Shown: positions 8,472 to 35,962, counted from the first letter of the stretch. The stretch is DNA of 64,000 nt from an uncultured bacterium (GCA_965541585.1 CBEUCH010000014.1:12670-76669), one strand, 5' to 3'. Numbers and translations are program-made. Notes: generated from the sequence alone by a model not told the origin.

Positions 8472-8474
8472 GCG

Positions 8475-9452: not shown

Positions 9453-9638
9453 GACATTATTATCTTTATACAGCAGGGGCGAGGTTACCTCGCCCCTACA
9501 AACATGATTATTATTATCTCAAATATATTAATTTTATGGTCGTTGAATTCCGTGGAGTCTTTGCTCTGGCGAAATAGATTCCGGATGAGATTTTATTTCC
9601 CAGGGCATCCCGGGCGTCCCATATGATTTTTCCCTCCT

Positions 9639-11023: not shown

Positions 11024-11088
11024 TTTCCAAGAAAATGTGATATTTTTCTTAGAAGATATATACTGGATTGGCGCGTTGGCGGGAATGA

Positions 11089-19439: not shown

Positions 19440-19454
19440 AGTATAGAGGGGATC

Positions 19455-19925: not shown

Positions 19926-20056
19926 CCGTATTTCATTTGCTTTTTTTATCCCGTGATTTTCCCCGGCGAACGCATTAGCATCTTATCGTGAATCATGGTA
20001 GATCCAGCTTCCACCATTATATGAGCGCTTGACACTTTTTTGCCTTAGAGGTTATT

Positions 20057-21607
20057 TTGACAATAATGAAAAAACTCAATTCCAGCCTTTTAATATTCAT
20101 TATTTTTCTGCTCTTTTTTCTGGCAGTACAAAATGCCGACCAGCAGGTAGATTCATACTCTTTCGTTCTGGACGCCCGAAATGGAGAGGGTTTATTTCAT
20201 CCACACCACCTGCTTTATAACGTTTTCCGATATGCCCTGTACCAGGCATCGATATCAGTGGACATGGATGCGATGAAAGTCCTGTCTATTGCCAATTCCC
20301 TGTTCGGCGCGCTTTCGTTGGCGTTTATATTTATGATCGTAAGAACTAGAACATCTTCCACTTTAGCCCTGACGGCGTCAGTGGCGGTGGGATTTCTATA
20401 TTCCTTCTGGTATTTTTCAACATCGGTCGAAGTTAACATTACATCGCTGATGTTTTTGTGCCTTGCGCTCTATTATCTGTCTGCCAAACCACCCAATGAA
20501 AAAAACACCATGGCCGTTTTCGCGTTTATAACGGCCGGAATACTCTTCCACCAGCATATGGTATTGGCCGTAATACCTATTCTGCTTTACGAGGCCCACC
20601 GGCATCGATCTTTTGCGCTGGCCGTGAGGTATTCCATGCCGAGCTTTGTGACGGGAGCGCTGATATATCTCATCATAGGAATAATCGAGGCGCCGGATAA
20701 AAGCATCGGAGGCCTGTATAGATGGTTGACGCTATACACCCACTTAGGCCATTGGGGAAAGCTCCGGTGGACAAACTTCCTGACCAGCCTGTGGGGAGTT
20801 GCCAAATCGGTCTTTGGCGGGGACAACCTGAGGCAGGTATTTTACAGTGACAACTTAGCGGTGTCAAACGTGATATACATCGTAGCGGCGGCTCTGTCAT
20901 CTATGGGATTTCTTCTGCTTCTGGTCTCAGCTTTTCGTCATTTTTCGAAAAAGAGGAATTCATTTGAGTGGCTGTTATTGTCACTGGCGGTAATTTTCGT
21001 AGTTTTCGCATTCTGGTGGGCACCCACTGATTCTGGTTTCTGGCTATATCCAGTTGTGCTGTTTCTTCTGTTCATCATCATGGCGGTCAGCGAGAATTAT
21101 CGGATGAAAAGAGTATTATATCTCGCCGTAGTGCTGCTGGTCACGATTAATACCTTCTATGAAATAGTATCGTCATCGGTGGCGAAAAAGTCAATTGCCC
21201 GGCAGGGGGCCGAAGCTTTGAGCAGACTCGAGCTTACCCCGGATGATCTGCTGTTGACCAATCTCGGGCGGATACCTCTAGCGCTCGATTATCACTATGG
21301 GATAAAAGTGCCATCTACCGGCCTGGCCTTTCTGGAAGAGGGTGAAAATGACGAGACCGTCAAAGAATACCACAGGCTGATTGGACAGAATCGAGGAAGA
21401 GTCATCATATTCGAGAATGAGATCAGCCCCGAAGCGCATCGACGCTTCCTGTTCGAGAGGTTTTCGGTGGAAGATTATTCCAACGTATATAGCCGATACA
21501 TTCCTCTTTTAATACCCCTCGATTCCATCGCGGTTTATGGCAAGAAAGTAAAAATATATCAAATCCGCAACAATGTGACTAAGGGTGATGGAATTCTCTC
21601 TCAATAG
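20057..21607 (+). CDS. polytopic membrane protein, possibly a glycosyltransferase-C fold (ArnT/PMT-like) enzyme
   Basis: 516 aa with about 10 or more hydrophobic helices. Embedded in the Kdo/LPS cluster. Confidence 0.4.
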   Translation: MTIMKKLNSSLLIFIIFLLFFLAVQNADQQVDSYSFVLDARNGEGLFHPHHLLYNVFRYALYQASISVDMDAMKVLSIANSLFGALSLAFIFMIVRTRTSSTLALTASVAVGFLYSFWYFSTSVEVNITSLMFLCLALYYLSAKPPNEKNTMAVFAFITAGILFHQHMVLAVIPILLYEAHRHRSFALAVRYSMPSFVTGALIYLIIGIIEAPDKSIGGLYRWLTLYTHLGHWGKLRWTNFLTSLWGVAKSVFGGDNLRQVFYSDNLAVSNVIYIVAAALSSMGFLLLLVSAFRHFSKKRNSFEWLLLSLAVIFVVFAFWWAPTDSGFWLYPVVLFLLFIIMAVSENYRMKRVLYLAVVLLVTINTFYEIVSSSVAKKSIARQGAEALSRLELTPDDLLLTNLGRIPLALDYHYGIKVPSTGLAFLEEGENDETVKEYHRLIGQNRGRVIIFENEISPEAHRRFLFERFSVEDYSNVYSRYIPLLIPLDSIAVYGKKVKIYQIRNNVTKGDGILSQ

Positions 21608-21744
21608 ATTTGCGGCCTGGAGTACCGAGAACGATCGGAATTTCCTTCGGGTAGCAGTAAAATGGCCACCCGAGGGGCAAATCTATCCCGCCACCCCCGC
21701 CTTTTCTATTGACTAAGTGCATCAGTATAAATTAATTCTCTACT

Positions 21745-22278
21745 ATGCGGAAAGCGGTGCATAAGAATCTGAAGTCGAAGCTTAAGAAGATCGAGCTTTT
21801 CGTTTTCGATGTCGATGGCGTTCTCACCGACAACACCGTCTGGATGGGAGGCGACGGTGATGAATACAAGCGGTTCAATATCGCTGACGGTATGGCGGTT
21901 TATATCGCCCGGCGGGCGGGGATACCCACGGCGTTTGTCTCGGGCCGAAAATCTAAAGCCACCACCGCACGGGCACGGGAGTTGAAGATAAAAGACCTTT
22001 TCCAGGAGGCCGGGCCGAAACGGGTGCCGTTTGAAAAGCTTCTGAAGAAATATAAACTGGTTGCCGAACAGGTGGCGTTCATGGGCGATGACGTTATCGA
22101 TGTGGCGGTGATGAGAATGGCCGGCATCGCGGTCACCGTGCCGCATGCACCCTCATATGTCAGAAGATACGCTGATATCGTGACCAAACGGCGGGCCGGT
22201 ATGGGTGCGGCGAGAGAATTGGTGGACATGGTGTTGAAGGCGAAAGGACTGGATCCGGTTGAACTCACTTATAGATAA
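21745..22278 (+). CDS. kdsC: Kdo-8-phosphate phosphatase (HAD family)
   Basis: FVFDVDGVLTD HAD motif I and FMGDDVIDV motif. 177 aa. Confidence 0.8.
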   Translation: MRKAVHKNLKSKLKKIELFVFDVDGVLTDNTVWMGGDGDEYKRFNIADGMAVYIARRAGIPTAFVSGRKSKATTARARELKIKDLFQEAGPKRVPFEKLLKKYKLVAEQVAFMGDDVIDVAVMRMAGIAVTVPHAPSYVRRYADIVTKRRAGMGAARELVDMVLKAKGLDPVELTYR

Positions 22279-23221
22279 GGCCAGAGAGGTTATTCTCAAA
22301 GAGGCCGAGGCCCTGCAGGAAATGGCCGGACGGCTTGACGGGAGTTTCGTCAAGGCTGTTGATCTTCTATTCAAAGCGAAAGGCAGGGTTATAATCGCCG
22401 GCATCGGTAAGTCGGGGCAGGTGGCCAGGAAGATTGCGGCGACGCTCTCGTCCACAGGGACACCGGCGTTTTTCATTCATCCCACCGAAGGTGTTCACGG
22501 CGATATCGGCATGGTGCTGGGTGGTGATGTGGCAATTCTGATCAGCAAATCAGGCGATACCGAGGAGCTTTTAAGGCTTCTGCCTATTTTCAAACGCCTG
22601 GAGGTACCCGCCATAGCGCTTACCGGCAGCAACGGTTCCCCGCTGGCTCAGCAATCCGATGTCGTCCTCGATACGTCTGTAAAGAGTGAAGCCTGCCGCT
22701 TGAATCTGGTTCCGACATCATCGGCCACCGCCGCCCTGGTCATGGGGGATGCTCTGGCTGTAGTGCTGGTGGAATTACGAGGCTTCACGGTCGATGATTT
22801 TTCATTCATTCATCCCGGCGGCGCTTTAGGACGGAAACTCATCAAGGTCGGCGATCTGATGCATACCGGAGATGAACTGCCGATTGTCAGGGATGATGCC
22901 AGTTTCAAGGATATGCTGGTGGCCATGACATCGAGGCGGTTTGGCCTGACGTTGATAGTGAGTGACACCGGAAAACTCATCGGTATTTTCACCGACGGCG
23001 ATCTCCGTCGCACGGTGGAGGCGCATGACAATCCGCTGGATCTGAAGGCCGGTGATATAGCTATTTCAAATCCAAAGAAGATCGGCGCCGATGAACTGGC
23101 GGCTACCGCGGTGGCCATTATGGAGGATCATAACATAACCAGCCTGGTCATTACCGACGGAGATGGTCGGCCGGTGGGATTGATACACCTCCACGATCTT
23201 TTGAAAGCCAAGGTTATCTGA
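22259..23221 (+). CDS. kdsD: arabinose-5-phosphate isomerase (SIS domain plus CBS pair)
   Basis: SIS motif VIIAGIGKSGQVARKIAATL and C-terminal CBS pair. Probable TTG start overlapping kdsC. Confidence 0.85.
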   Translation: MNSLIDKAREVILKEAEALQEMAGRLDGSFVKAVDLLFKAKGRVIIAGIGKSGQVARKIAATLSSTGTPAFFIHPTEGVHGDIGMVLGGDVAILISKSGDTEELLRLLPIFKRLEVPAIALTGSNGSPLAQQSDVVLDTSVKSEACRLNLVPTSSATAALVMGDALAVVLVELRGFTVDDFSFIHPGGALGRKLIKVGDLMHTGDELPIVRDDASFKDMLVAMTSRRFGLTLIVSDTGKLIGIFTDGDLRRTVEAHDNPLDLKAGDIAISNPKKIGADELAATAVAIMEDHNITSLVITDGDGRPVGLIHLHDLLKAKVI

Positions 23222-24174
23222 TGTCGAATCTGCGGCAGATCAAGAATGATATTATATATATATTGATAAGAGCGCTTATATTCTTACTTGAGAATATGCC
23301 TCGCAATGCGGCCCTGAGATTCGCCGGCATGATAGGTGAGATTGCTGCTATGATCGATGTCAGGGAGCGAAAAATAGCCGAGGAAAACCTCCGGCGTATA
23401 TACGGCGGGAAATGGAGCGATACTAAGATTAAGCTTGTAGCCAGAGAATGTTTTGTTAAGATAGCCTTGAACGCCGCGGATGTGATTCAATCGAGGAATT
23501 GGACGCCTGATGATCTTGAGAAGCTGGTTGACGTGGAGGGCATTGAGCATTTTGACAGGGCATTCGAAAGAGGCAAGGGAGTGGTAGCAATAACGGGCCA
23601 TATCGGTAATTTTGAGCTGCTGGCCGCCTGGTTCGCCGCCGTAAAAAAAATCCCCCTCTCGGTTATCGGTAGGAGGCTTTACGATGACAGGCTGGATCAA
23701 CTGGTAGTGCAAAACCGGCAGCGGTTCGGAATAGAGAATATACCGTCGGATGCATCCGCGAAGACGGTTTTCTCGGCTTTGAGGGTGGGCCGGATGCTGG
23801 GCGTGCTTATCGACCTGGACTCCTCGAAAATCGCCGGAGAATTTGTTCCCTTTTTCGGTATTCCCGCCAGGACGGCATCCGGACCGATAGTCATCGGCCG
23901 CAGGACAGCAAGCCCCGTGGTCCCCATGGCCATGTTCCGAACCGAAGACGATCGTTTCAAAATAAAGATCCTGGCATCATTTGATATAGCGCATACCGGG
24001 GATAAAGAGGCCGATGTTCTCGAAGCGCTCAGCAAATGCAATAGAGCGCTGGAGGAACTGATAAATCTCGATCCTACCCAATGGCCCTGGATTCATGACC
24101 GCTGGAAATCAAAACCTTCCGGGGTTAACGGCGTAAAAGAGAAACCGGAGGAGGTAGGATTATCAGCAGGCTGA
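23221..24174 (+). CDS. lpxL: lipid A biosynthesis lauroyl/myristoyl acyltransferase family (LpxL/HtrB-like)
   Basis: 317 aa. HxxxxD-type region (ITGHIGNFELL) and Kdo2-lipid IVA acyltransferase-like length and context. Confidence 0.7.
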   Translation: MSNLRQIKNDIIYILIRALIFLLENMPRNAALRFAGMIGEIAAMIDVRERKIAEENLRRIYGGKWSDTKIKLVARECFVKIALNAADVIQSRNWTPDDLEKLVDVEGIEHFDRAFERGKGVVAITGHIGNFELLAAWFAAVKKIPLSVIGRRLYDDRLDQLVVQNRQRFGIENIPSDASAKTVFSALRVGRMLGVLIDLDSSKIAGEFVPFFGIPARTASGPIVIGRRTASPVVPMAMFRTEDDRFKIKILASFDIAHTGDKEADVLEALSKCNRALEELINLDPTQWPWIHDRWKSKPSGVNGVKEKPEEVGLSAG

Positions 24175-24176
24175 TT

Positions 24177-24746
24177 TTGAATATCTTTCTGGTTCTCACA
24201 ACGGCGGCCGCCTGCAGCAAAACTGAAAGGCAGCCGGAAGAGCCTCTGGATGAAAAAATACCGGATTCGGTTATCCAGAACGCTACAATAGCTTTGACCT
24301 CCGAGGGATTAAAAGAGGCTGTGATTTTCGCTGATACGTTGACTGTTTTCGACCGGGAGGATTCCACGATTGCCGTAGGGGTCAAGGTCGATTTTTACGA
24401 TGAGAACGGCGAATATCAATCTACACTGACCTCGAAAGAGGGTCTGGTAAGGCAGACGAGGCGTGAGTTTTGGGTACGGGGCGACGTTGTTGTCGTCAGC
24501 GATTCATCGCGGCTCGAGACTGAATCGCTGAAGTGGGATCCGGTGCAAAAACTGATTACCACCGATGATTTCGTAAGACTTCACAGGGGAAAAGACATTA
24601 TTACCGGCTACGGAATGGAGGCCGATAGCAGGCTTGAGAATGTGAGAATCCTCCGGGATATTAAAGGCAGCATAACGGATATTCCTCAAAGCGAGGAAGA
24701 GTTGGATGAACTCGAAGGAGACGAGGGCGGGGGGAATCTTCCATGA
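24177..24746 (+). CDS. lptC: LptC/LptA-family (OstA-like) LPS export protein
   Basis: 189 aa with lipoprotein-like leader (..TTAAACS). Directly upstream of and overlapping lptB. Probable TTG start. Confidence 0.5.
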
Positions 24747-25501
24747 TGGCCGTAACTGAAGGCGGAAACATTAATTCGTCCCGGCTGAGATCCGAGGAGC
24801 TTCTTAAGATTTACCGAAAGCGCCGCGTTGTCGACGGCGTTTCAATATCGGTTTCTTCGGGGGAGATTGTCGGTCTTTTAGGCCCCAATGGCGCCGGGAA
24901 AACCACAACGTTCTATATGATTACAGGGTTAATCCGTCCCAATGATGGCAAGATTTATATGGACGATGAGGACCTGACCCGGCTCCCGATGTATAAGAGA
25001 TCTCGCAAGGGAATCGGGTATCTGCCGCAGGAACCTTCGATATTCAGAAAGCTGAGCGTCGAGCAAAATATAATGGCCATTCTGGAGACGCTGCCGATCT
25101 CCCGGAGCGAGCGCAAAGGCCGCCTGGAGAAACTGTTAGACGATCTGGACATAAAACCTCTCGCCAGGTCTATGGCCTATAATCTATCAGGTGGCGAGAG
25201 ACGCCGTGTGGAGATCGCCAGGGCGCTGGTGACAGAGCCAAAATTTATGCTGCTGGATGAGCCATTTTCCGGCATCGATCCCATCACCGTCGAGGAGATA
25301 CAGAGGATAATAGCGGGCCTGAAGGAAAAAGGGCTCGGTATTTTGATCACCGATCATAACGTCAGGGAGACTCTATCTATCACCGATCGGGCCTACGTTA
25401 TTTGTGACGGCGAGATTCTCAAAAGCGGCACCTCGGAGTTCCTGGCTAATGATCCCGAGGCCAGGAAAATCTATCTTGGTGAAAAATTCAGGTTGAATTA
25501 G
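24743..25501 (+). CDS. lptB: LPS export ABC transporter ATP-binding protein
   Basis: Walker [10 protein letters not shown], signature [15 protein letters not shown], Walker [11 protein letters not shown]. Confidence 0.9.
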
Positions 25502-25619
25502 GGGGGAGTCGTGCCCGGCTGTTACAGTCTTAACCATATAAAGGAAAATTGTGTTGATCCGCTATTTAACGTATTCGCAATTGGTGGCTTAATTTTTCCT
25601 AGATAATTTCGGGAGGGAC

Positions 25620-28600
25620 ATGTTACTAACAGAAAATCAACTTGATGAGTGGGTACGAGCCAATTCGCGCGATGCTCAGGGGGTAATCGTTGAGCTTATA
25701 TGGCGGTTGGTGGTCGGATCTTGTCCCCGTCCTCCCGAGCGGCGATTTCCGCTGGGCGACAGCATCAATCAGCCGGGTCCCGACGGTTTCCTAAATACGG
25801 ATATGGCATATGAGCCTTTTGTACCGTTGGGAAAATCTTTTTGGGAAATCGGTACAGGTTTAAACGCAGCCAGTAAGGCGACTTCGGACTATAACGACCG
25901 TACAGCTGACACACCTGGAGAAATCCGAAAAGAATCTGCGTTTATTTTTGTTACGCCCTTGTCGGCAACACGGGATTGGAAATACACATGGAAGGAAGGA
26001 TCTCAAGCTTCTTGGATTGAGAAACGGGCCAAGAAGAAAGAATGGAAAGAGATTCGTGTGATAGATGGCACCAAACTAATAGATTGGTTGCGACAATTCC
26101 CCGCTGCTGAATTGTGGATGTCGGCCAATATGGGTATTCCTGCAGACGGAATGGAAACGATAGAGCAAAGTTGGGGATTGCTGCGAAACATTGGTGCGCC
26201 TCCTCCATTATTACCTGATGTTTTTCTTGGGAATCGAGATGACGCGTGTGTCAAACTTAAGGAATTTTTTTCACGCACTCAACTGCAACTCAAACTTGAG
26301 TCGCATTTCCCCTATCAGATTGTCCAATTTGTCGCTGCTTACGTGGCGAATATGGAAGACAATTTTCGAGTCGAAATTATCGGCCGCTGCGCGGTAGTCT
26401 CGAATATTAAAGCGTGGAATGCTATTATGGAACTCAAGGACAAGCATTTTTTGGTGGCCGATCCTAGTCTTGATTTAACAAGTGAAGTTGGTATGAAATT
26501 GATAGAGAAAGCTCGCATGGCAGGTCACTTTGTTGTCTACGGTGCAGCACCAGGGGGCATTCCACATCCAAATACCGCCAAAATCCCTAATCCAAGAGAT
26601 TATCAGATTCGAGAAGCCTTGATAAAATCTGGTTATAAAGAGGAGCGAGCACGAACAATTGCCCAGAAAAGCGGCGGGAATCTTGGCTCTTTGCTTCGAT
26701 GCTTACAGAATTTGTCTTTGATGCCAGAATGGGCAGAACGAACCACGGCGGCGGAACTGGCCATTGCCGAAATTCTGGGAAGCTGGGATGAGAGCTCTAA
26801 AGCGGATATAACAGCGGCCGAGAGATTATCGGGAAAAGCATACGGGGAGTGGATCGAGACGATACGTGAAATCATACTTCGTCCGGGCACTCCCCTAATT
26901 CAGAGGGATTCTATTTGGAAGTTTATTGCCCGGTATGAAGGATGGTATGCTTTAGGGCCGCGTCTGTTTGACAAGCATTTAGATTTAATTCTAAAAGAAT
27001 CGGTTAGAATTTTGAAAGAAGCTGATCCTAAATTCGATTTGCCACGTGAAGAACAATTTACTGCCAGTATTCATGGAAAAGTCCTCTCGCATTCGACTGC
27101 GCTGCGAAACGGTCTCGCAGATTGTCTTGCGCTGCTGGGAAGTCACCCTAAAGCTCTCTTATCATGTACTTTAGGCAAACCCGAATCCACTGCCGCGCTT
27201 GCGGTTCGCGGAATTCTATCGGGAACTGATTGGAAATTATGGGCCAGTTTGAATGATCAATTGCCCTTACTTGCTGAGGCATCTCCTGATGAGTTTCTTG
27301 ACGCTGTCGAAAAAGCGTTAAGCAGTGATCCATGTCCATTTGATAAAGTGTTCGAGCAAGAAGGTTCGGGTGTTATGGACTGGAATTATATGACCGGTTT
27401 ACTTTGGGCGTTGGAGACACTGGCTTGGAGCGAGGTATATTTGGCTCGAGCAACTGTAATTTTGGGTGAGCTTGCCGTACGTGATCCCGGAGGAAATTGG
27501 GCAAACCGTCCGTCCAATTCTCTAACGACGATTATGCTCCCGTGGATGCCGCAGACATGTGCTCCCATCGAAAAGAGGATTGGCGCGGTTTCCATATTAA
27601 TTAAAGAAAAACCGGATATAGCATGGAACTTATTATTAAGCCTGCTGCCTAGTTCACATCAAATGTCATCAGGTACAAGAAGACCTGCTTGGCGAGAATT
27701 CATACCTGAAAATTGGCCATCTGCCATAACGCGACAGGAATACGCCGATCAAGTTATTCGTTATACGGATATAGTTATAGAAGCCGCCAAGAATGATCTC
27801 TCAAAACTCGCCCAACTTATCGACAGGATCGAAGATCTGCCATTAGAAGCGCGCAATCGCTTGATTGAACACTTGGACTCCGATTCAATAGCTGATTTGC
27901 CGGAGGAAACCAGACTCAAACTATGGGAAGAACTAATCGATCTTATTAACAAACATAAGAGGCATGCAGATGCTAAATGGGCGATGGAACAAGATCAAAT
28001 TGATGTACTTTCCAATATCGCTGGTCGGCTTGAACCCAGAACCCCGGCCCACCTATACCGACGGTTATTTAGCGAAAGGGATCTTGATTTATATGAAGGG
28101 AAGGGAGATTGGCACAAACAGGCTGAAGACTTGGAAGAACGTCGCCGGAAAGCGGTCGCGCATATATATGAGGAAAACGGCATTGGAACGGTTATTGATT
28201 TTGCTAAAAAGGTTGAATCTCCCTGGCGCGTAGGAATAGCATTGGGAGCTATTTCTCAAGAAGATGCTGATAAGATCATTTTACCTGATTTTATAAATAT
28301 TGATGACAAGACTCTTATTCAATTTACTGCTGGTTTTGTTAGAGGAAAATTCAATTGCTGCGGGTGGTCTTGGGTTGATAAGATTAATACTGCAAATTGG
28401 TCTAATATTCAAATAGGCCAGTTTCTTGCTTATCTACCTTTTGGTCTCGATACATGGAAACGAGCAAAGGATTTTCTCAAAGATGACGAATCTATTTATT
28501 GGAACCAGACCAATGCCAATCCATATGAAACAGATAATAATCTCGATATTGCGGTAAATCGCCTTATTGAATTTGGAAGGCCAGGTGCGGCAATTCGATG

Positions 28601-29417
28601 TTTGCATAAGAATATTCGGGATAAAAACCTCATGATGGATTCTACTCTTGCAATTCGTGCTTTACTAGCATTTCCGAAATCATCGGAGAGGCCTTTGAGT
28701 TCTATGCTATCTCATGAAATTGCGGAAGTGATAAGAGCTTTGCAGGAAGATCCAAATGTGTCAGTAGATGACTTGTTTAGGATCGAATGGATATTCCTAC
28801 GTCTTTTGGATAGAAACACCGGCGGGCCCCCGAGGTTACTTGAAAAAATGCTTTCTGAAAAACCAGAATTTTATTGCGAGGTGATTCGCACGGTTTACCG
28901 GTCAAAAAATGAGGAAGAGACCGTTGAACCGACAGAGCTTCAAAAAAACATGGCAAGCAACGCATATCATTTACTTCACTATTGGAGGAAACCACCGGGC
29001 ATCGTAGAAGATGGTTCTTTTGATGGGGACCGATTAAATAGATGGGTAAAATTCGTTAAAGAGGAATCCGCTAAAACAGGTCATTTTGAGGTTGCCATGC
29101 ATCGGCTCGGCTATGTTCTAATCTATGCACCCCCCGACCCAGACGGATTATGGATTCACAATGCGGCCGCTTCCATCCTAAACGAAAAAGACACAGATAT
29201 GATCCGCGATGGTTTTAGAAATGGGCAATTTAATTCCCGTGGTGTGTATACCGGTACAGGTGGCAAAGAGGAACTAAAGATAGCAGAAAATTACAAATCT
29301 CGAGCAGATGAACTGGAAGCCAAAGGATTTCATCGTCTTGCTGCTACAATAAGGGAATTGGCAAAAGCCTATGAGCATGAATCTGAGCGTGAATCTAGAA
29401 AAGAAGATGATTTTTAA
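25620..29417 (+). CDS. large (1265 aa) orphan protein of unknown function. Compositionally atypical (lower GC, AT-rich third positions). No P-loop or other motif recognised
   Basis: Single uninterrupted 3.8 kb ORF sitting between lptB and rpoN. Codon usage visibly differs from flanking genes. Confidence 0.7.
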   Translation: MLLTENQLDEWVRANSRDAQGVIVELIWRLVVGSCPRPPERRFPLGDSINQPGPDGFLNTDMAYEPFVPLGKSFWEIGTGLNAASKATSDYNDRTADTPGEIRKESAFIFVTPLSATRDWKYTWKEGSQASWIEKRAKKKEWKEIRVIDGTKLIDWLRQFPAAELWMSANMGIPADGMETIEQSWGLLRNIGAPPPLLPDVFLGNRDDACVKLKEFFSRTQLQLKLESHFPYQIVQFVAAYVANMEDNFRVEIIGRCAVVSNIKAWNAIMELKDKHFLVADPSLDLTSEVGMKLIEKARMAGHFVVYGAAPGGIPHPNTAKIPNPRDYQIREALIKSGYKEERARTIAQKSGGNLGSLLRCLQNLSLMPEWAERTTAAELAIAEILGSWDESSKADITAAERLSGKAYGEWIETIREIILRPGTPLIQRDSIWKFIARYEGWYALGPRLFDKHLDLILKESVRILKEADPKFDLPREEQFTASIHGKVLSHSTALRNGLADCLALLGSHPKALLSCTLGKPESTAALAVRGILSGTDWKLWASLNDQLPLLAEASPDEFLDAVEKALSSDPCPFDKVFEQEGSGVMDWNYMTGLLWALETLAWSEVYLARATVILGELAVRDPGGNWANRPSNSLTTIMLPWMPQTCAPIEKRIGAVSILIKEKPDIAWNLLLSLLPSSHQMSSGTRRPAWREFIPENWPSAITRQEYADQVIRYTDIVIEAAKNDLSKLAQLIDRIEDLPLEARNRLIEHLDSDSIADLPEETRLKLWEELIDLINKHKRHADAKWAMEQDQIDVLSNIAGRLEPRTPAHLYRRLFSERDLDLYEGKGDWHKQAEDLEERRRKAVAHIYEENGIGTVIDFAKKVESPWRVGIALGAISQEDADKIILPDFINIDDKTLIQFTAGFVRGKFNCCGWSWVDKINTANWSNIQIGQFLAYLPFGLDTWKRAKDFLKDDESIYWNQTNANPYETDNNLDIAVNRLIEFGRPGAAIRCLHKNIRDKNLMMDSTLAIRALLAFPKSSERPLSSMLSHEIAEVIRALQEDPNVSVDDLFRIEWIFLRLLDRNTGGPPRLLEKMLSEKPEFYCEVIRTVYRSKNEEETVEPTELQKNMASNAYHLLHYWRKPPGIVEDGSFDGDRLNRWVKFVKEESAKTGHFEVAMHRLGYVLIYAPPDPDGLWIHNAAASILNEKDTDMIRDGFRNGQFNSRGVYTGTGGKEELKIAENYKSRADELEAKGFHRLAATIRELAKAYEHESERESRKEDDF

Positions 29418-29630
29418 ACATAGTTGTTAAATTTAACCCCCCCCTATCCGATCCCAAAAAAAATCGTATTATTTTCGCTTTCATTACTAATTTGGACTAA
29501 ATTTTGCTTGCAATTACCGCCTAAACTGATATATTGACTCATAGAAAGAAGAGGCTTTCGTTTAAGTCTAATTCCGGTTATGCCGATAAATAGAGCGGTG
29601 GTGAGGAAGTCTCTGAATTAGGATAAGTCT

Positions 29631-31070
29631 ATGGTTAATATTAGGATGTCACAAATAGTGGGGCTTCGGGCCGAACTTACGGTAAGGCCCGATCTGATCC
29701 AGTCGCTGAAACTCCTGATGGAGCCTATCCTGAATCTCGAGCAGGTTTTAAGGCAGAATCTGGCCGAAAATCCCCTTCTGGAGGAGATCGAGGAGCAGGA
29801 GGAGGAGATAATACAACCCGAGGTTCCGGAGCCGGCCCGCAAGAATGACGAGAAACTCAAGGAGATCGACTGGCAGGAGTTCTTAGGCGAGGAGAATGAA
29901 TGGGTTTCGGGGCATTACAGGGATTTTTCCGAAAGCGACGAGGAGAGAACCGAGCGGACCCAGGTTGTGGAGAAAACTCTTTATGATCATCTTTTCGAGC
30001 AGCTTGGCTATACCCGTCTGAGCGATGAGGAGATTGAAATAGGAGCATACATTATAGGCAATATTGATGAATCCGGTTTTTTGCAATCGGAAGTCAACAG
30101 GATGGCCGAGGAGCTTCAGAAGGATCCGGAGATGGTTGAGAAGGTATTGAAGGTTATCAAGAAGTTTGACCCTCCGGGGGTCGCTTCACGTGATCTGCGC
30201 GAATGTCTCCTGGCTCAGCTCGAGGAACAAGGGCTTAACGGTTCTCTGGTATGGGAGCTTGTGGATGAACATCTTTACACGCTTGATAAGAAAAGCGTTT
30301 CTCAGCTCTCCAAACTGACGGGAGCATCGCCTGAGAAGGTACAGTCTGCGCTGGATATCATAAAGAGTCTATCGCCAAAGCCGGCTCAGGGTCAATTTGT
30401 GAAACCCGCGGCAGCAGTGGTGCCGGATCTGATTGTCGAGAAAATGGACGGGGACTATGTGATCTTTCATAACGATAAGAATCTTCCCAGAATGCGTATC
30501 AATCAATCCTACCGGTCTTTGATCAGGCGGGGTAATAAAACCCCGGAAACCACAAAGAATTATATTCGTGAAAAGCTGGAGCAGGCCCGATGGCTCATTA
30601 ACGCCATAAACCAGAGGCGGAGCACCATGATTAACGTTATGGAAGCCATAGTGGAGGAACAAGTAGGCTTTCTCGAACATGGCGAGGACCATATCAGGCC
30701 GCTGACAATGGAGCAAATAGCCGATAAAGTCGGGATGAATGTTGCTACCATATCGCGGGTGGCCAGCGGAAAATATGTCCAGACGCCTCTCGGGGTGTTC
30801 GAAATCAAATACTTTTTCAACACCGGGGTTTCGACGGCGAATGGGGAGGATCTATCAAAGCGGGTGGTGAAGAACAGGATCCAGGCTGTCATTTCGGGTG
30901 AAAACCCGGCCCTGCCACTGTCCGACCAGGAGATTGCGAATATTCTTAAAGAGGATGGTGTGAAGCTTGCCCGGCGAACAGTCACCAAATACCGTGAAGA
31001 ATTGGGCATAAAATCGGCGAGATTCAGAAAACAGTTATCGGGGAGTTCCTCCGGTTCCTCATCGATTTAG
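29631..31070 (+). CDS. rpoN: RNA polymerase sigma-54 factor
   Basis: Acidic Glu-rich region II, HTH, and C-terminal RpoN box ARRTVTKYRE. Confidence 0.9.
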   Translation: MVNIRMSQIVGLRAELTVRPDLIQSLKLLMEPILNLEQVLRQNLAENPLLEEIEEQEEEIIQPEVPEPARKNDEKLKEIDWQEFLGEENEWVSGHYRDFSESDEERTERTQVVEKTLYDHLFEQLGYTRLSDEEIEIGAYIIGNIDESGFLQSEVNRMAEELQKDPEMVEKVLKVIKKFDPPGVASRDLRECLLAQLEEQGLNGSLVWELVDEHLYTLDKKSVSQLSKLTGASPEKVQSALDIIKSLSPKPAQGQFVKPAAAVVPDLIVEKMDGDYVIFHNDKNLPRMRINQSYRSLIRRGNKTPETTKNYIREKLEQARWLINAINQRRSTMINVMEAIVEEQVGFLEHGEDHIRPLTMEQIADKVGMNVATISRVASGKYVQTPLGVFEIKYFFNTGVSTANGEDLSKRVVKNRIQAVISGENPALPLSDQEIANILKEDGVKLARRTVTKYREELGIKSARFRKQLSGSSSGSSSI

Positions 31071-31464
31071 ATATCCCGGATCTGGCGATCGTCCGTATCG
31101 AATCTAACGTATAAAAATGCTTGCCTGCCGCCTGAAATCCTCATAAATTGGTTTCCAAATTATGGAACACGGTATCGTGAGAATGCGCTTCCCCGGTCTG
31201 AACTTGGCCGGTTTTTGTATTAAAATGAAATCTAAACGGAGACAATTCTTAGGCTAAATGATTTAATGCCATTGAATTCTAGGCGGATACAGGACAGAGG
31301 CCCGATGCCGAAAATAAGCATGGGAATAGGGGAGTATTTCGATATCGAGCCCCGAAATCAGATAATGGTCACCCGGTTTGAAATCTTTGAAACAAAGCTT
31401 GATCCCACCAGGTAGAATCGGCATAGCGCCGGATTGCCGTCGAAACCGATTGAGAGGTGTTTAA

Positions 31465-31821
31465 ATGGATATTAGAACAACAGCGAGACACTTCCAGCTG
31501 ACCGATAACCTGAGGAAATATTCTGAGAATGAGATAAAGAGACTGGAGAAATACTACGATCATATAATAGACACCCATCTGACAATGTCGGTGGAGAAGT
31601 CCAGGCAAATAGCGGAATTGATCGTAAAGGTTTATGGCACGGTACTTACATCCAAGGCCAAGGCCTTCGATATGTATGTCGCTGTCGAGCAGGTCATCAG
31701 TAAAATGGAGACTCAGATAAAGAAGTATAAAGCCAAGCTCAGGGATAGGAAGAGTGCCAGGAAATCACCGCTGAAAACGCGGAATTTCAATGTCGAGACA
31801 GAGGAAACGGAGGACGAGTAA
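31465..31821 (+). CDS. hpf: ribosome hibernation promoting factor / sigma-54 modulation protein
   Basis: 118 aa with N-terminus MDIRTTARHFQLTDNLR. Conserved position after rpoN. Confidence 0.85.
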   Translation: MDIRTTARHFQLTDNLRKYSENEIKRLEKYYDHIIDTHLTMSVEKSRQIAELIVKVYGTVLTSKAKAFDMYVAVEQVISKMETQIKKYKAKLRDRKSARKSPLKTRNFNVETEETEDE

Positions 31822-31826
31822 CAGAT

Positions 31827-32795
31827 ATGCCAACCCTCACAGTCGGCAAGTTGATCTCGGAAAAGCGTGATTTTCTGGAACTGTTTCCGCTTCTGGAGGG
31901 GATAGGATATGAGAAGTCTCTGAAGGACAGCCAGATTCATCGTCCCGGGCTGGCCCTGACGGGATTTAACGAACGGTTTCCCAATGATAGAACCCAGGTT
32001 CTCGGGCAGACGGAGATTTCCTATCTGAATAGCCTTACAGACAGCCAGCTCGACGAGCGTTTAGCTAATCTATTCGCCTTTGATATTCCTCTTTTTATTG
32101 TAACCAAAGGCATGGTTCCTCCGAATAAATTTCTCCGTTACGCCGAAAATTCCGGCACTGCGGTTTTGCAGACAAATCTTTCGACGACAGAATTGATAGG
32201 CCGGCTCTCTGCTTATCTTATCAACATTTTCGCTCCCCAGACCACTATTCACGGTTCATTGGTGGATGTTTATGGTGTTGGCCTTCTTTATACGGGAAAA
32301 TCGGGGATAGGAAAGTCCGAATGCGCTCTCGATCTCGTCGAACGGGGGCATAGGTTGGTGGCCGATGACTCCATAAAGATCACGAAAAAGACGCCCGACG
32401 TTATCGTGGGCCATGCGGTCGAAAAACTGGGCCATCATATGGAAGTACGCGGCATCGGGATCATCGATATTGAAAAACTGTTCGGGATAAGGGCTATTAG
32501 ATTGCAGAAAAGGATCGAGGTGGAGGTTCGTCTGGAACGCTGGGATGAATCCAAGGAATATGATCGCCTGGGGATCGATGATCATCGGACGTCGATACTG
32601 GGAGTTGAAATTCCTTATGTGGTTATCCCGGTTTCCCCGGGAAAGAATATAACGGTGATTTCCGAGGTCATCAGCATGAATCATATGCTGAAAGTCTACG
32701 GCGAAAACACCGCCCAGAGATTTATTCAGAAGCTAACGGAGGAAATCGCTCGTAGGAAGACCACGCTGGCTTATCTCGAGGCTGATATGGAATAG
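31827..32795 (+). CDS. hprK: HPr kinase/phosphorylase
   Basis: Walker A GKSGIGKSE and motif LVADD. 322 aa. Confidence 0.9.
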   Translation: MPTLTVGKLISEKRDFLELFPLLEGIGYEKSLKDSQIHRPGLALTGFNERFPNDRTQVLGQTEISYLNSLTDSQLDERLANLFAFDIPLFIVTKGMVPPNKFLRYAENSGTAVLQTNLSTTELIGRLSAYLINIFAPQTTIHGSLVDVYGVGLLYTGKSGIGKSECALDLVERGHRLVADDSIKITKKTPDVIVGHAVEKLGHHMEVRGIGIIDIEKLFGIRAIRLQKRIEVEVRLERWDESKEYDRLGIDDHRTSILGVEIPYVVIPVSPGKNITVISEVISMNHMLKVYGENTAQRFIQKLTEEIARRKTTLAYLEADME

Positions 32796-32933
32796 CGATT
32801 CAAGAAAGCAGACCGCTTTATCCGGCGGACTGCTTTCCGGAGACGCCGTTACAAATAAATGTTTTATGATCCGCTGAAACCAAATCCTATTCCTGCCGAA
32901 TATAAATGTTAGAGAGAGGTTAGAGGGAACAAG

Positions 32934-33830
32934 ATGCGAGATCTTTCGGTCGAGTTAAAAGTGGGAACGGTCGTCATCGTGGCGGCCCTTATATTATTTT
33001 TCGGAATAGTCTGGGTGAAGGATTATAAATTCAACGTAAAAAGGTATGATTATTCAGTATTGTTTCCCAATATTGGCACTCTCGAGGTGGGAGACCCGGT
33101 CAGCGTCCTGGGCGTCAAAAAAGGGGGGGTTAAGAAGATCGTCCTTTCAGGCAACGATGTTCTGGTGACGTTCAATCTTACGGATGATGTCGATCTGAGA
33201 AACGACGCTATATTTACGGTCATGAATATCGGCCTCATGGGGGAGCGATTCATCAATATTATCCCCGGCGTGTCAGCGGTGCCGCTGGATCTTTCCTATC
33301 CCGTGCATGGTTTCTATGACACAGGTATTCCTGAGGTGATGGGTATGATGGGCGCCGCCATCGATGAGGTCCGGCATCTGGTAGCCATACTCGAAGGTAC
33401 GGTGGGCACTCCTGAGGCGACGACGTCCATCAAGAACATAATAGCCAATATGGAACGAATATCGAGCGATTTGCGTATGCTGACAGAGGAGAATACGGAG
33501 AAGATGTCGCAGACTGTGGAGGATCTCTCGGTCTCGTCAGCCAGGATGAGGGATTTCGTGGATCGCAATGAACAGAAGCTTCAGGGTACGCTTGATAACT
33601 TCAACGAGGCATCAGGAAACATCGCCGTCTTTTCAGGGAGGATGGATAGTCTATCGATGTCGGTTCAAAATTTAATCGCCGATATGGAAGCGGGGCAGGG
33701 GACTCTGGGAAGAATGCTGAAAGAGGATTCTCTATATCAGAGCCTTTATAAAACTGCTGTTGATTTGGATTCTCTTATTACGGATTTCAAGGCCAATCCC
33801 AAGAAATATATCCACTTCTCAATATTCTGA
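32934..33830 (+). CDS. MCE/MlaD-family protein
   Basis: N-terminal TM, then an MCE-like beta domain (VGDPVSVLGVKKGGVKKIVL). 298 aa. Confidence 0.65.
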   Translation: MRDLSVELKVGTVVIVAALILFFGIVWVKDYKFNVKRYDYSVLFPNIGTLEVGDPVSVLGVKKGGVKKIVLSGNDVLVTFNLTDDVDLRNDAIFTVMNIGLMGERFINIIPGVSAVPLDLSYPVHGFYDTGIPEVMGMMGAAIDEVRHLVAILEGTVGTPEATTSIKNIIANMERISSDLRMLTEENTEKMSQTVEDLSVSSARMRDFVDRNEQKLQGTLDNFNEASGNIAVFSGRMDSLSMSVQNLIADMEAGQGTLGRMLKEDSLYQSLYKTAVDLDSLITDFKANPKKYIHFSIF

Positions 33831-35962
33831 TGGTACGCCTCGTTTTCGGGATACATATCCACCAGCCGGTTGGGAATTTCGATTCCGTTTTTGAATCTGC
33901 CTATGATAAATGCTACCTGCCCTTCTTGAAAACGATCGCTAACCACCCATCCATCAAATTCTGCCTTCATGCCACGGGGCCGCTTTATCACTGGATCGAA
34001 CAAAATAAACCGGAGTGGTTTGAACTCTTGAGAGGGATGCTGGCTTCCGGTCAGGTGGATATGATGGGCGGCGGATTTTACGAACCGATTTTAAGCGCCA
34101 TACCGATGGAGGATAGCATCGGCCAGATCGAGAAAATGTCAGACTATATAGAACAGAAGTTTGGTGTTGTCCCGAAGGGCATGTGGACCGCGGAACGCGT
34201 CTGGGAACCGGGCCTGCCGGCGATAATGGCGCGGGCGGGGATGACCTATACCGTCCTGGATGATACTCATTTTCGATGGGCGGGTTTGAAAGAAGACCAG
34301 CTTTTCGGGTACTATATTACAGAGGATGGTGGTCTACCGGTTTATGTTTTTCCAATCAGCAAATTCCTAAGATACAGCATACCGTTTCAGCAGCCGCGGG
34401 CGACAATAGAATATCTGAAAAAACTATATGACGAACGGGGCGATATTATTGTGGTGTATGCCGACGACGGCGAGAAATTCGGCGTCTGGCCCGGCACTCA
34501 TAACACCTGTTACAACGAAAGGTGGCTGGAACGTTTTTTCCACCAGCTGGCGGAAAACGTCGGCTGGATAAAGCCGGTATTTTTTTCTGAGGCGATTGAG
34601 GAATTACCGGCTATCGGCAGAGTCTATCTTCCAACATCATCATACGCCGAGATGGGACAATGGTCATTGCCGCCGGATGGATTCGGAGAATATGAACAGA
34701 TAGAGAATAAGTTCAAGGACGAAAAGCTCTGGGACGAATACGGTTATCTCATTCGGGGAGGTTTCTGGCGCAATTTTATGACGAAATATCCAGAGGCCAA
34801 CAATATGCATAAGAAAATGATGTATCTTACATATCAAATCCGGGAGGCCTCGGAGAAGAAGACCCTCGATGACGATACTCTCGCCAGGGTCATCGATCTC
34901 AAATGGCAGGGGCAATGTAATTGTCCTTACTGGCACGGGATATTCGGCGGATTGTATCTAAATCATTTAAGGCATGCCACCTATTCGCGTTTTCTACAGG
35001 CCGAGTCGATGCTCGAGAGCGTCAAAGAAGAATCGTTTATCGAACATGAGGTGTTCGATTTTGACATAGACGGCCACGAGGAGGTAATATTAAAAAACCG
35101 CTACATAAACCTTTATATATCGCCGTCTCTCGGAGGCTCGATTTTCGAACTCGATTATAAGCCGGCATCGATAAATCTTCTGGACACCATGACCAGACGG
35201 AAGGAGGGTTACCATAGCAGGCTTGTGCAGGCGACGCCGGCAGACGATTCGGCGGAAGGTTCGATCCACGACAGGGTCGAGGTTAAAGAGGGAGGGCTGG
35301 AGAAATATCTGATTTATGACTGGTACCGGCGAACAGGTTTCCTCGATCATTTCCTGGAGCGGGATGTCGATATCGAGAAATTCGCCGGAAACGAATACAC
35401 CGAATGCGGGGATTTTGTCGATCAGCCTTACTCTGCAGAGCTGGTCAAAAAGGAAGATCGGGTCGGGCTGGTGATGGCTAGAGACGGGCATGTCTGGATT
35501 AACAAAATCTGGGCGCCGGTAATCGTGGGGAAAATGGTAGTCCTCTGGTCCGGTAGTCCGAAGTTTGATGTTTTTTACCGTGTGGAAAACAAATCCGATT
35601 CGCATCTGAAATCTCTGTTCGGGATCGAAACCGCCTGGGCCATGCTGGCGGGGAATTCGCCTGACAGGTTTTATCATATCGATGGTTCTAAACCTGCGGC
35701 CTGCGAAATGCTCTCGAGCGGCGTGATTTCAGACTCGGAAATTTTCGGAATCAGGGATAATGCTTTAAAGTATGACATCACCCTGAAGGCTGATCAAAAA
35801 CTCGATTGGTGGCGATTCCCGATTGAGACTGTCAGCCTGTCGGAGAATGGATTTGAACGAAATTACCAGCAGTCAACGGTCATGCCGGTCGTGAAACTGG
35901 ACCTGGGGCCGGGTGATTCCGCAAAAATAAGAATCACCGTAGAAATCAACAAAACTGAATAA
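33830..35962 (+). CDS. glycoside hydrolase family 57 enzyme (4-alpha-glucanotransferase/amylase-like) with C-terminal extension
   Basis: N-terminus VFGIHIHQPVGNF (GH57 HxHQP signature). 710 aa. Confidence 0.7.
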   Translation: MVRLVFGIHIHQPVGNFDSVFESAYDKCYLPFLKTIANHPSIKFCLHATGPLYHWIEQNKPEWFELLRGMLASGQVDMMGGGFYEPILSAIPMEDSIGQIEKMSDYIEQKFGVVPKGMWTAERVWEPGLPAIMARAGMTYTVLDDTHFRWAGLKEDQLFGYYITEDGGLPVYVFPISKFLRYSIPFQQPRATIEYLKKLYDERGDIIVVYADDGEKFGVWPGTHNTCYNERWLERFFHQLAENVGWIKPVFFSEAIEELPAIGRVYLPTSSYAEMGQWSLPPDGFGEYEQIENKFKDEKLWDEYGYLIRGGFWRNFMTKYPEANNMHKKMMYLTYQIREASEKKTLDDDTLARVIDLKWQGQCNCPYWHGIFGGLYLNHLRHATYSRFLQAESMLESVKEESFIEHEVFDFDIDGHEEVILKNRYINLYISPSLGGSIFELDYKPASINLLDTMTRRKEGYHSRLVQATPADDSAEGSIHDRVEVKEGGLEKYLIYDWYRRTGFLDHFLERDVDIEKFAGNEYTECGDFVDQPYSAELVKKEDRVGLVMARDGHVWINKIWAPVIVGKMVVLWSGSPKFDVFYRVENKSDSHLKSLFGIETAWAMLAGNSPDRFYHIDGSKPAACEMLSSGVISDSEIFGIRDNALKYDITLKADQKLDWWRFPIETVSLSENGFERNYQQSTVMPVVKLDLGPGDSAKIRITVEINKTE

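Follow-up and report, generated by a model that had tools for sequence, protein, structure and literature searches.

The window, a stretch of 64,000 nucleotides from the genome of an uncultured bacterium of the Zixibacteria, contains an open reading frame for a protein of 1265 amino acids between the genes lptB, which ends at position 25501, and rpoN, which starts at position 29631 and is followed by hpf and hprK. The coding sequence on the plus strand (25620..29417, 1265 codons and a stop) is complete and intact, as described in the original prediction, and it has full-length homologs. A Shine-Dalgarno-like motif, GGGAGGG (25611..25617, plus strand), was read from the sequence 2 nt upstream of the ATG codon. 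No consensus sigma-70 promoter was identified in a promoter scan of the region 25500-25619, and co-transcription of the open reading frame with lptB is therefore possible; the inserted gene probably relies on transcription that reads through from the lpt operon. The promoter scan also identified a sigma-70-like promoter candidate for rpoN (TTGCAA-16-TATATT with TG, 29508..29535, plus strand).

Comparison with the closest relative (locus L089, with a 99% identical RpoN) revealed an empty site, in which lptB and rpoN are separated by a spacer of 292 bp. In the blastn alignments, positions 1-6706 of L089 correspond to positions 18795-25499 of the window at 94.6% identity, and positions 6861-12145 to positions 29491-34773 at 97.7% identity. 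The junction alignments define an inserted segment of 3,991 bp (25500..29490, plus strand), which has taken the place of 154 bp of the original spacer between lptB and rpoN, with L089 as the reference. The gene is also missing in two other relatives (L090 and L091, with 88% and 79% RpoN identity, respectively), and the insertion into this junction, previously suspected from the gene order, is thus proven by the empty site. The left breakpoint is located within the lptB stop codon, which is TGA in the relatives and TAG in the window, with the break between the T and the AG. The promoter candidate for rpoN, which is kept in the empty-site relatives L089 and L090, lies intact right behind the insert.

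The insert contains no mobility gene and no plasmid gene. As also noted in the original prediction, there are no flanking repeats: the only direct or inverted repeat found at the ends of the insert is a single 8-nt inverted match (TAGGGGGG/CCCCCCTA), of which about 0.2 are estimated to be expected by chance. Neither terminal inverted repeats, a target-site duplication, an attC site nor a transposase or integrase gene, as expected for a transposon, IS element or integron cassette, were identified at the insert. The transposon and integron-cassette interpretations were rejected because there are no repeats and no mobility gene, and because the flanks are not conserved in other loci. The gene is a recent arrival in the Zixibacteria genome, where it was inserted at the stop codon of lptB as a bare segment of 4 kb, probably through illegitimate recombination.

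The open reading frame is AT-richer than its surroundings, with a GC content of 0.445 versus 0.488 in the remainder of the window. Its GC3 value is 0.382, compared to 0.55-0.61 in each of the flanking genes, which is the lowest value among the 42 long open reading frames in the window (mean 0.551, sd 0.062, z about -2.7). The Hachiman system located at 41.5-45.1 kb in the window has the same low-GC3 signature. Across 62 family loci, the GC3 value was below that of the flanking genes in 87% (p 1.7e-10). The protein had been thought to be an orphan, but this did not hold: we identified at least 784 close cluster representatives of the family, as well as a superfamily that numbers at least 3,001 clusters at E≤1e-30. 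Full-length homologs of 1260-1272 amino acids, annotated as “hypothetical” and with 26-59% sequence identity, are present in about 388 of 185,579 species representatives (~0.2%), and these show a patchy distribution over more than 20 bacterial phyla and the archaea. The sequences are nevertheless well conserved, with a mean column identity of 76% in the main clade. Members of the family were also found on 24 plasmids, of which 16 are conjugative or mobilizable and 11 of these conjugative; the copy on plasmid pSBAL17501 adjoins parAB, with a RelE/HigA pair nearby. The insertion sites differ in every family locus and share no common flanking sequence. The gene has been horizontally acquired, in agreement with the original prediction, since a near-identical relative has an empty site, the GC3 value is low, the distribution is patchy and copies are carried on conjugative plasmids.

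AlphaFold models (pLDDT 92), for which homologs were gathered in a search that started from a distant member of the family, divide the protein into three parts. The N-terminal part (residues 1-172, 25620..26135, plus strand) is a putative effector with the fold of the PD-(D/E)xK restriction endonucleases, including the alpha-beta-beta-beta-alpha-beta core of this superfamily in the predicted structure. Conserved residues in this head domain are E25, G53-x-D55-G56, S73-x-W75-E76 and K86-A-T-x-D90-Y91. D55 is present in all 72 members and E76 in 71 of the 72, both on the expected strands, while K86 is present in 70. The earlier conclusion that a PD-(D/E)xK signature is lacking was thus correct for the canonical sequence motif, with a glycine (G78) rather than a lysine at position +2 after E76, but not for the N-terminal 170 amino acids as such, which have the fold and the conserved D, E and K residues. 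The conserved lysine K86 is located 10 residues after E76, in the following helix, and judging from the sequence it may substitute for the canonical catalytic lysine. The fold of the head is similar to the cleavage domains of the modification-dependent enzymes MspJI and AspBHI; no modified-base-binding domain (SRA, EVE, YTH) was detected in the protein. Pfam searches with the full protein and three fragments gave no match at E≤10, no PADLOC or NCBIfam model matched, and only noise was obtained in searches against PDB sequences with phmmer and profile hmmsearch.

The second part (residues ~176-367, 26145..26720, plus strand) consists of an AAA+/STAND-like alpha/beta core and a helical lid. The best solved two-domain match to the nuclease and the NTPase-like domain together is Avs4 (PDB 8dgf, probability 0.99). 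The reported absence of a P-loop was borne out by the alignment of the 72 members, in which the Walker A motif has been lost and the consensus after beta-1 is T-[HR]-[FY]-P, with no G-K-[ST]. Furthermore, the aspartate of Walker B is present in only 35 of the 72 members, and the AVAST, NACHT, NB-ARC and AAA_16 models gave no match in the window protein at thresholds of E≤1 to 10. The possibility that the domain is a functional STAND/AAA+ ATPase was rejected since neither Walker motif is conserved. The domain is missing from most members of the superfamily, and oligomerisation by means of this domain is thus not a general mechanism.

The third part (residues ~368-1265, 26721..29414, plus strand) is an all-alpha solenoid of about 900 amino acids, a putative sensor, which agrees with the helical character predicted for the C-terminal two thirds. 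The solenoid has no close solved relative, and no significant structural match to the solved Avs sensors was obtained. It is this unit that defines the superfamily in bacteria and archaea, in which it is placed behind interchangeable N-terminal heads, and the equivalence of the module across the superfamily was recovered with an hhalign probability of 100% over 900 columns. The alternative heads include SIR2, TIR, PNP, Schlafen/AlbA_2, metallophosphatase and GT4-conflict domains, along with DUF4062, Abi_C, FRG and NNH5. The SIR2 head matches the pAgo-associated SIR2 at E 1e-101 and the solved Sir2 superfamily chains 8jkz and 8in8, which we take to be short-pAgo/SPARSA, at E 1e-28, while the PNP head matches a CBASS PN effector. 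The relative P0410 consists of exactly a SIR2 domain and the solenoid, and its solenoid, like that of the window protein, lies outside all PADLOC models.

To characterize the genomic neighborhoods, all open reading frames within 5 kb of the gene were clustered in 80 family loci. No conserved partner gene was identified in these loci, which suggests that the gene works alone. Type I hsdM/hsdS genes are located upstream on the same strand in 15 of the 80 loci, about one fifth, and hsdR is located downstream in 7. The nearest neighbors are enriched for Methylase_S, N6_Mtase, Eco57I, Fic, RhuM and SLFN_AlbA_2 domains, and the neighborhoods for type I and type III restriction-modification (R-M) systems, BREX-like methylases, GmrSD, DarTG and toxin-antitoxin genes. 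Other neighbors are GmrSD, PglX-like methylases, AAA_15/21 ATPases, a PLD-helicase and NACHT-HEAT-DUF4365 proteins. HicAB and DarTG adjoin the gene in chromosomal loci, and in one locus (L003) the homolog is flanked by an SNF2 helicase on one side and a type III mod/res pair on the other. Approximately 80% of the loci are located outside obvious R-M operons and some neighbors are purely housekeeping genes; no R-M genes were evident in the window in surveys of open reading frames, Pfam domains and composition.

The best explanation for these findings, to which we assign a probability of roughly 0.68, is that the gene codes for a stand-alone, horizontally mobile immune-type protein with an effector-adaptor-sensor layout, which most likely acts in anti-phage defence as a single, hitherto uncharacterised protein. 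The original prediction had mentioned anti-phage, toxin and effector proteins in general, and defence is now strongly supported, although not proven, because of the neighborhoods rich in R-M and toxin-antitoxin genes (with DarTG, HicAB and GmrSD among them), the nuclease fold of the head and the solenoid shared with proteins headed by immune-type effectors. With no matching PADLOC, Pfam, NCBIfam or PDB-sequence model, the assignment rests on association and domain logic.

We also considered the possibility that the protein assists or guards R-M systems as a “restriction-linked ORF” that would monitor or complement them, comparable to PrrC and RloC, which respond to inhibition of the R-M enzyme, or else that it is a type IV-like modification-dependent nuclease, and that the window copy is a stray that has been parted from its R-M partner. 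The hsdM/hsdS genes directly upstream on the same strand, the hsdR gene next to some of the copies, the type III locus L003 and the resemblance of the head to the MspJI and AspBHI cleavage domains all speak for such a role, as does the published pattern of defence genes lying within type I R-M operons (PMC11411939). However, R-M genes are missing around most loci, including in the window, none of the R-M subunits is a conserved partner, no SRA, EVE or YTH domain accompanies the head, and the SIR2-, TIR- and PNP-headed relatives cannot be restriction nucleases and yet have the same module, which makes this explanation unlikely. It is also quite unlikely that the protein serves the mobile elements themselves, as a toxin or exclusion factor that stabilizes its carrier or attacks rival plasmids, with the chromosomal copies as remnants. 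The plasmid copies, the position beside parAB and close to RelE/HigA on pSBAL17501, the adjacent HicAB and DarTG genes in chromosomal loci and the nuclease head are all as expected for such a weapon or addiction factor, but its neighbors include no conserved cognate antitoxin or immunity gene, and the insert in the window lacks mobility and plasmid genes. The distinction from defence is moreover partly semantic, as many defence systems ride on plasmids.

A housekeeping or regulatory role, for instance in transcription control through DNA binding or, after co-option into the lpt-rpoN operon, in DNA repair or as a scaffold, would be in line with the name “helix-turn-helix transcriptional regulator” given in RefSeq to HTH-prefixed relatives, the JGI name ArsR family regulator for the homolog P0005, the high sequence conservation and the location on the same strand in an essential operon with a good ribosome-binding site. 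We regard this as very unlikely since the closest relatives lack the gene in an otherwise identical operon, only about 0.2% of the species have it, its composition is foreign and the head repertoire (SIR2, TIR, PNP, Abi_C) is of the immune-system type. Furthermore, the canonical form has no Pfam HTH domain, and the regulator annotations stem only from a small added XRE domain; the ArsR name for P0005 was rejected for want of Pfam support. The clean insertion of a single gene, with no recombinase, target-site duplication or terminal repeats, and the presence of a nuclease head could also be expected of a selfish gene of the homing-nuclease type, which would use its own PD-(D/E)xK domain for insertion at intergenic sites. 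We rejected this idea, which is extremely improbable, because the flanks are not conserved at other loci and all insertion sites are different, with no recognition sequence in common; a protein of 1265 amino acids with a 900-residue solenoid is unlike any homing endonuclease, and superfamily members with non-nuclease heads have spread in the same manner.

We favor the hypothesis of anti-phage defence, in which the solenoid would bind a ligand derived from the infection, most likely a conserved phage protein. Binding of the ligand could lift autoinhibition and/or promote self-association via the degenerate AAA+/STAND-like domain, whereby the FokI-like PD-(D/E)xK heads would be brought together and cut DNA, with restriction of the invader or abortive infection as the outcome. 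The conservation of the family is unusually high for an arms-race sensor, an observation that counts against a defence function. More tentatively, and with somewhat less than even odds, the solenoid may represent a previously undescribed sensor module, independent of a STAND NTPase, in at least 3,000 clusters with a dozen or more effector heads, including two nuclease types, while in the nuclease-headed branch a relic AAA+/STAND-like domain without nucleotide binding would act solely as an assembly adaptor; this would make it a large new immune-receptor family missed by the current defence-finder models. A name for the family was not found in the literature, in which mostly openly accessible papers were covered, so an earlier description may exist.

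PADLOC v2 includes models for Dsr1/Dsr2 and Upx. Identity with Upx, Dsr1/2, Avs1-5, PD-lambda-4/Avs8, Lamassu LmuA or Hachiman was rejected because no PADLOC model covers the family, and in the case of Upx also because the architecture is inverted. The layout is similar in outline to that of the Avs proteins, which are likewise single polypeptides of 1,200-1,500 amino acids with an N-terminal effector, an NTPase-fold domain with a lid and C-terminal helical repeats. The effector is a PD-(D/E)xK-type nuclease at the N-terminus also in the nuclease-headed Avs4, and the Avs proteins are horizontally mobile, located in defence islands and have a sensor paired with many effector heads. Degenerate Walker motifs have been reported in homologs of KpAvs8 (PMC13581612), a likeness to the degenerate NTPase-like domain of the window protein. 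Unlike the Avs proteins, the window protein has no Walker A and B motifs and no match to AVAST, NACHT or NB-ARC, the NTPase-like domain is missing in most superfamily members and the solenoid has no significant structural match among the solved Avs sensors. Dsr1 and Dsr2 are similar in that an effector head and a large all-helical sensor are joined in one protein with no requirement for an NTPase, but their effector is SIR2, whereas the window protein has a nuclease head and SIR2 occurs only in superfamily relatives such as P0410. No homology of the window solenoid to the Dsr sensors was established; the Avs7/Dsr1 sensor is itself reported to be reused across unrelated effector architectures, some of which, like Dsr1, have no STAND domain (PMC13581612).

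Upx is another single large protein, widespread in bacteria and archaea, in which a divergent PD-(D/E)xK nuclease is joined to a large sensor of the phage terminase, with no STAND NTPase (PMC13601566). It differs in that the nuclease is C-terminal and the sensor N-terminal with beta-augmentation (PMC13601566), whereas the nuclease of the window protein is N-terminal and its sensor all-alpha. As compared to the cleavage domains of the FokI/BspD6I type, the head of the window protein shows only 8-12% identity, has no Pfam match, carries its conserved lysine 10 residues after the glutamate rather than at position +2, and is not attached to a sequence-specific DNA-recognition domain. The restriction-linked ORFs, such as PrrC, RloC and the type I-embedded TgvAB of Vibrio cholerae VPI-2, are comparable in position, as about one fifth of the family members occupy a same-strand site flanked by hsdS and hsdR. 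However, PrrC and RloC, which combine an ABC ATPase with an anticodon nuclease, and GmrSD have no sequence or fold relation to the window protein, and most family copies, including that in the window, are not linked to R-M genes.

The window illustrates how a putative defence gene can insert exactly at the end of an essential operon gene, in its stop codon, sparing both lptB and the promoter-like site upstream of rpoN, and the Zixibacteria locus represents a well-defined natural pair of an insertion and an empty site. Homologs are available from the cultivable Shewanella baltica, Pseudomonas brassicacearum, P. citri, Paenibacillus helianthi and Cupriavidus metallidurans, and the trigger of the putative sensor is within reach of existing co-expression screens. 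The Shewanella baltica homolog is WP_014615232.1, encoded on pSBAL17501. If confirmed, our findings would reveal a large immune-receptor family outside all Pfam, PADLOC-2023 and NCBIfam models, with thousands of clusters in many bacterial phyla and in the archaea, and with members borne on plasmids. The family would then provide another clear case of a single sensor module that is reused with many effectors. It would also provide an Avs-like architecture in which the NTPase domain lacks the nucleotide-binding motifs, and as such bear on the evolution of the STAND-type receptors and the dispensability of NTP hydrolysis.

The 1265-residue open reading frame that the original prediction placed between lptB and rpoN is intact, running from an ATG at position 25620 to 29417 on the forward strand, and a GGGAGGG can be read two bases before the start codon. 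Based on Pfam matches, it is preceded by genes for a KdsD-like SIS+CBS protein (22259-23221), a lipid A acyltransferase (23221-24174), LptC (24177-24746) and LptB (24743-25501), and followed by genes for RpoN (29631-31070), Hpf (31465-31821), HprK (31827-32795) and an MlaD-like protein (32934-33830). The AT-richer composition remarked upon earlier was borne out by the calculations, with a GC content of 0.445 as compared to 0.488 in the rest of the window and a GC3 value of 0.382 as compared to 0.55-0.61 in each neighbor gene, which is the lowest among the 42 long open reading frames of the window (mean 0.551, sd 0.062). The RpoN sequence assigns the host to candidate division Zixibacteria. In the lpt cluster itself (21745-25501), lptC is followed by lptB without an intervening lptA, and the lipid A acyltransferase gene is located between kdsD and lptC. 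This arrangement is kept in the Zixibacteria relatives L089-L091; the order in E. coli is kdsD-kdsC-lptC-lptA-lptB.

The proposed insertion into a conserved operon junction was corroborated by a synteny comparison with L089, a relative with 99% identical RpoN, in which the gene is missing, the gene order from kdsD to mlaD is the same and the lptB-rpoN spacer measures only 292 bp. The gene is also missing in the more distant relatives L090 and L091, with RpoN identities of 88% and 79%, respectively. At the DNA level, positions 1-6706 of L089 align with 18795-25499 of the window (94.6%) and positions 6861-12145 with 29491-34773 (97.7%), indicating that the 3,991 bp at 25500-29490 have replaced 154 bp of the ancestral spacer. 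On the left, the break interrupts the stop codon of lptB, which is TGA in the relatives and TAG in the window, where the break follows the T and the AG comes from the insert. The right breakpoint is located just upstream of a conserved promoter-like sequence, TTGCAA-16-TATATT, before rpoN. The window gene is a recent insertion.

As originally noted, there are no flanking repeats, and the insert ends without terminal repeats except for one 8-nt inverted match (TAGGGGGG / CCCCCCTA) at 25499-25506 and 29439-29446. The left breakpoint coincides exactly with one copy, and the second is found 22 nt past the stop codon of the open reading frame, away from the right breakpoint; the match is probably coincidental, since by our estimate chance alone would produce about 0.2 matches of this kind. 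No target-site duplication was found at the ends of the insert and no mobility gene inside it, and the flanks brought in with the gene showed no similarity to the flanks of homologs at other loci. Furthermore, a scan detected no consensus promoter between lptB and the open reading frame and no terminator after it, which makes transcription by read-through from the lpt operon plausible. The ancestral spacer was also called to contain an open reading frame of 44-45 codons (6777-6911 in L089 and 4655-4792 in L090) that overlaps the promoter-like site of rpoN; its 5' part was removed by the insertion, leaving a remnant at about 29491-29541 of the window. It may be a small gene, a leader peptide or a spurious call. 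In L091, a gene for a glpX-type fructose-1,6-bisphosphatase (8639-9598) is located between rpoN and hpf, so that variation within the lineage extends to a second junction of this "conserved" operon.

The description of the gene as an orphan did not hold, as at least 784 cluster representatives were matched among 5.8 billion proteins. The best 120 matches have 1252-1286 residues and full-length identities of 55-59%; those with a named source are from Clostridia, Deltaproteobacteria, Nostoc, Halothiobacillus, Thiobacillus, Rubrobacter and others, all labeled "hypothetical." A second search seeded with a distant member extended the family down to 26% identity. With one genome per species, relatives were identified in 388 of 185,579 species. 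The bacterial carriers belong to the Desulfobacterota, Acidobacteriota, Cyanobacteria, Alpha-, Beta-, Gamma- and Zetaproteobacteria, Firmicutes, Nitrospirota, Chloroflexota, Planctomycetota, Gemmatimonadota, Spirochaetota, Verrucomicrobiota, Bacteroidota/Ignavibacteria and several candidate phyla, and the archaeal carriers to the Nitrosopumilales, Methanotrichaceae and Methanosarcinales. No earlier description or name of the family was found in the literature searched, which left most subscription journals outside our reach, and a recent description under another name is possible.

Family members were found on 24 plasmids, of which 11 are conjugative and 5 mobilizable, and one copy (WP_014615232.1, 43% identical), on the Shewanella baltica F-type plasmid pSBAL17501, adjoins parAB. 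Further copies from cultivable hosts are those of Pseudomonas brassicacearum Bi06, P. citri OPS13-3 and Paenibacillus helianthi. Phage genomes in the phage collection searched essentially lack the family. The only match there, at 1882-3774 of MT837561.1, is 23% identical to residues 1-676 (E 1e-29); this 6.6-kb unannotated "Bacteriophage sp." fragment from human feces may be a misbinned bacterial fragment or may carry a phage-borne distant relative. In 87% of 62 loci, the GC3 value of the family gene is below that of the genes on either side (mean difference -0.12, Wilcoxon p 1.7e-10), and the foreign composition is thus a property of the family rather than of the window copy alone.

No Pfam, PADLOC (PADLOC-DB release 2023), NCBIfam or PDB sequence model matched the window protein, even when the thresholds were relaxed and a profile of 72 sequences was used. 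AlphaFold2 models built with diverse alignments reached a pLDDT of 92.0 and a pTM of 0.86 for residues 1-420, and a pLDDT of 92.3 for residues 391-1265. In these models, residues ~176-367 make up an alpha/beta core of the AAA+/STAND-like type and a helical lid, for which Foldseek returned RFC subunits with a probability of 1.00; Avs4 (8dgf), with a probability of 0.99, gave the top query TM-score for the two-domain head. The absence of a P-loop was correctly predicted, as T-[HR]-[FY]-P occupies the Walker A position. Since the Walker B aspartate is moreover present in only 35 of the 72 members, this is a degenerate NTPase domain, predicted to bind neither ATP nor ADP.

When 1.84 billion cluster representatives were scanned exhaustively with HMMER, 3,001 proteins were recovered with E<=1e-30, a number that rose to 6,312 with E<=1e-3. 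Beyond about 50 canonical full-length matches, most align just to query residues ~367-1200, and differing N-terminal regions of about 150-460 residues are located upstream of the aligned solenoid. In a profile-profile alignment of the canonical class with 40 such proteins, the similarity started at residue ~368 and covered 900 columns with a probability of 100%, and the heads gave no alignment. The heads include a SIR2 domain, which matches the short-pAgo-associated SIR2 (E 1e-101) and the solved Sir2 superfamily chains 8jkz and 8in8 (E 1e-28), a PNP_UDP phosphorylase domain matching a CBASS "PN-superfamily" effector, a calcineurin-like phosphoesterase (P0366, in which the AAA+-like domain is kept), as well as TIR_2, Schlafen/AlbA_2, GT4-conflict glycosyltransferase, DUF4062, FRG, Abi_C and NNH5 domains. 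The most frequent head has no Pfam match, and by the look of its consensus, GGGGxxFE ... TDD ... QxKH, it could be an Mrr-type nuclease. Some members have an added N-terminal XRE-type HTH, and it is this small domain that explains the "transcriptional regulator" annotations. Most members of the superfamily lack the AAA+-like domain, which therefore cannot carry their general mechanism.

Clustering of all open reading frames within 5 kb at 80 loci revealed no universally conserved partner, and the family gene thus stands as a unit of its own. It is most often associated with type I restriction-modification systems, with hsdM/hsdS-type genes upstream on the same strand in 15 of the 80 loci (for example L005) and hsdR downstream in 7. 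Likewise, the top families in a bulk scan of nearest neighbors were Methylase_S (7-8 of 131), N6_Mtase and type I methyltransferases (5-9), Eco57I-type methylases (5), Fic/DOC (3), RhuM (2) and SLFN_AlbA_2 (2). Individual copies are found in a type III restriction-modification/SNF2 island (L003), near DarT-DarG (L007), near HicAB in an archaeal genome (L006), or next to GmrSD, PglX-like methylases, AAA_15/AAA_21 ATPases, a PLD-helicase-DUF3427 protein and a NACHT-HEAT-DUF4365 protein. Some copies reside among housekeeping genes (minCDE, dxs, metH, PDH E1), like the one in the window. Judged against an expected background, the defence association is strong.

In two unrelated type I restriction-modification operons, from the Gemmatimonadaceae and the Treponemataceae, the stretch from hsdS to hsdR holds both the family gene and a gene with SLFN_AlbA_2 and HATPase_c_4 domains (cluster c32; L039 13807-15222 and L054 8078-9469). 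The same AlbA_2 domain also stands in for the nuclease head in the superfamily proteins P0211 and P0418. In a Pyrinomonadaceae MAG (L052), the NACHT-HEAT-repeat-DUF4365 protein at 6250-9414 on the reverse strand adjoins the family gene; it is a bona fide STAND-type candidate whose C-terminal domain is nuclease-like, showing that the family co-resides with canonical STAND defence genes.

The window also contains a Hachiman system (41519-45119, forward strand), with HamA (PF08878, E 4.7e-59) at 41519-42529 and a DEAD/ResIII/Helicase_C helicase at 42441-45119. Its GC3 value of 0.40 is the same low signature as in the inserted gene, so that the segment holds at least two compositionally foreign defence-type loci. 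A 1045-residue protein at 47371-50508 (forward strand) carries a Peptidase_S74 (endosialidase chaperone) domain at its C-terminus, together with a weak beta-roll ice-binding-like match, and is tail-fibre- or adhesin-like; a dockerin repeat is located nearby, at 37388-38506.

We considered whether the window protein belongs to a named class of immune sensors. It lacks the defining NTPase motifs of the STAND family and matches none of its sequence models, and membership in Avs was likewise rejected, as was a fit to any named defence family (sequence models, PADLOC-DB 2023). A STAND census has reported that Avs sensors are reused by proteins without a STAND NTPase, such as Dsr1, and that at least one Avs8 homolog has degenerate Walker motifs (PMC13581612). 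Upx is also a large protein that combines a sensor and a nuclease without a STAND domain, but there the domains are arranged in the opposite order and the sensor has a high content of beta strands (PMC13601566).

Taken together, NADase, nucleosidase, nuclease, RNase-like and TIR heads are all found joined to one large conserved module, and the genes that encode it occur in defence islands and on plasmids and spread horizontally as single genes. Single-protein immune sensors such as Avs and Dsr1/Dsr2 are known to follow the same pattern. The variety of heads, the genomic context and these precedents suggest that the window protein would consist of an effector (the putative nuclease), an adaptor (the relic NTPase fold) and a sensor (the solenoid). 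It is established that FokI-type domains must dimerize to cut duplex DNA, and activation would most likely occur by ligand-induced juxtaposition of the FokI-like heads.
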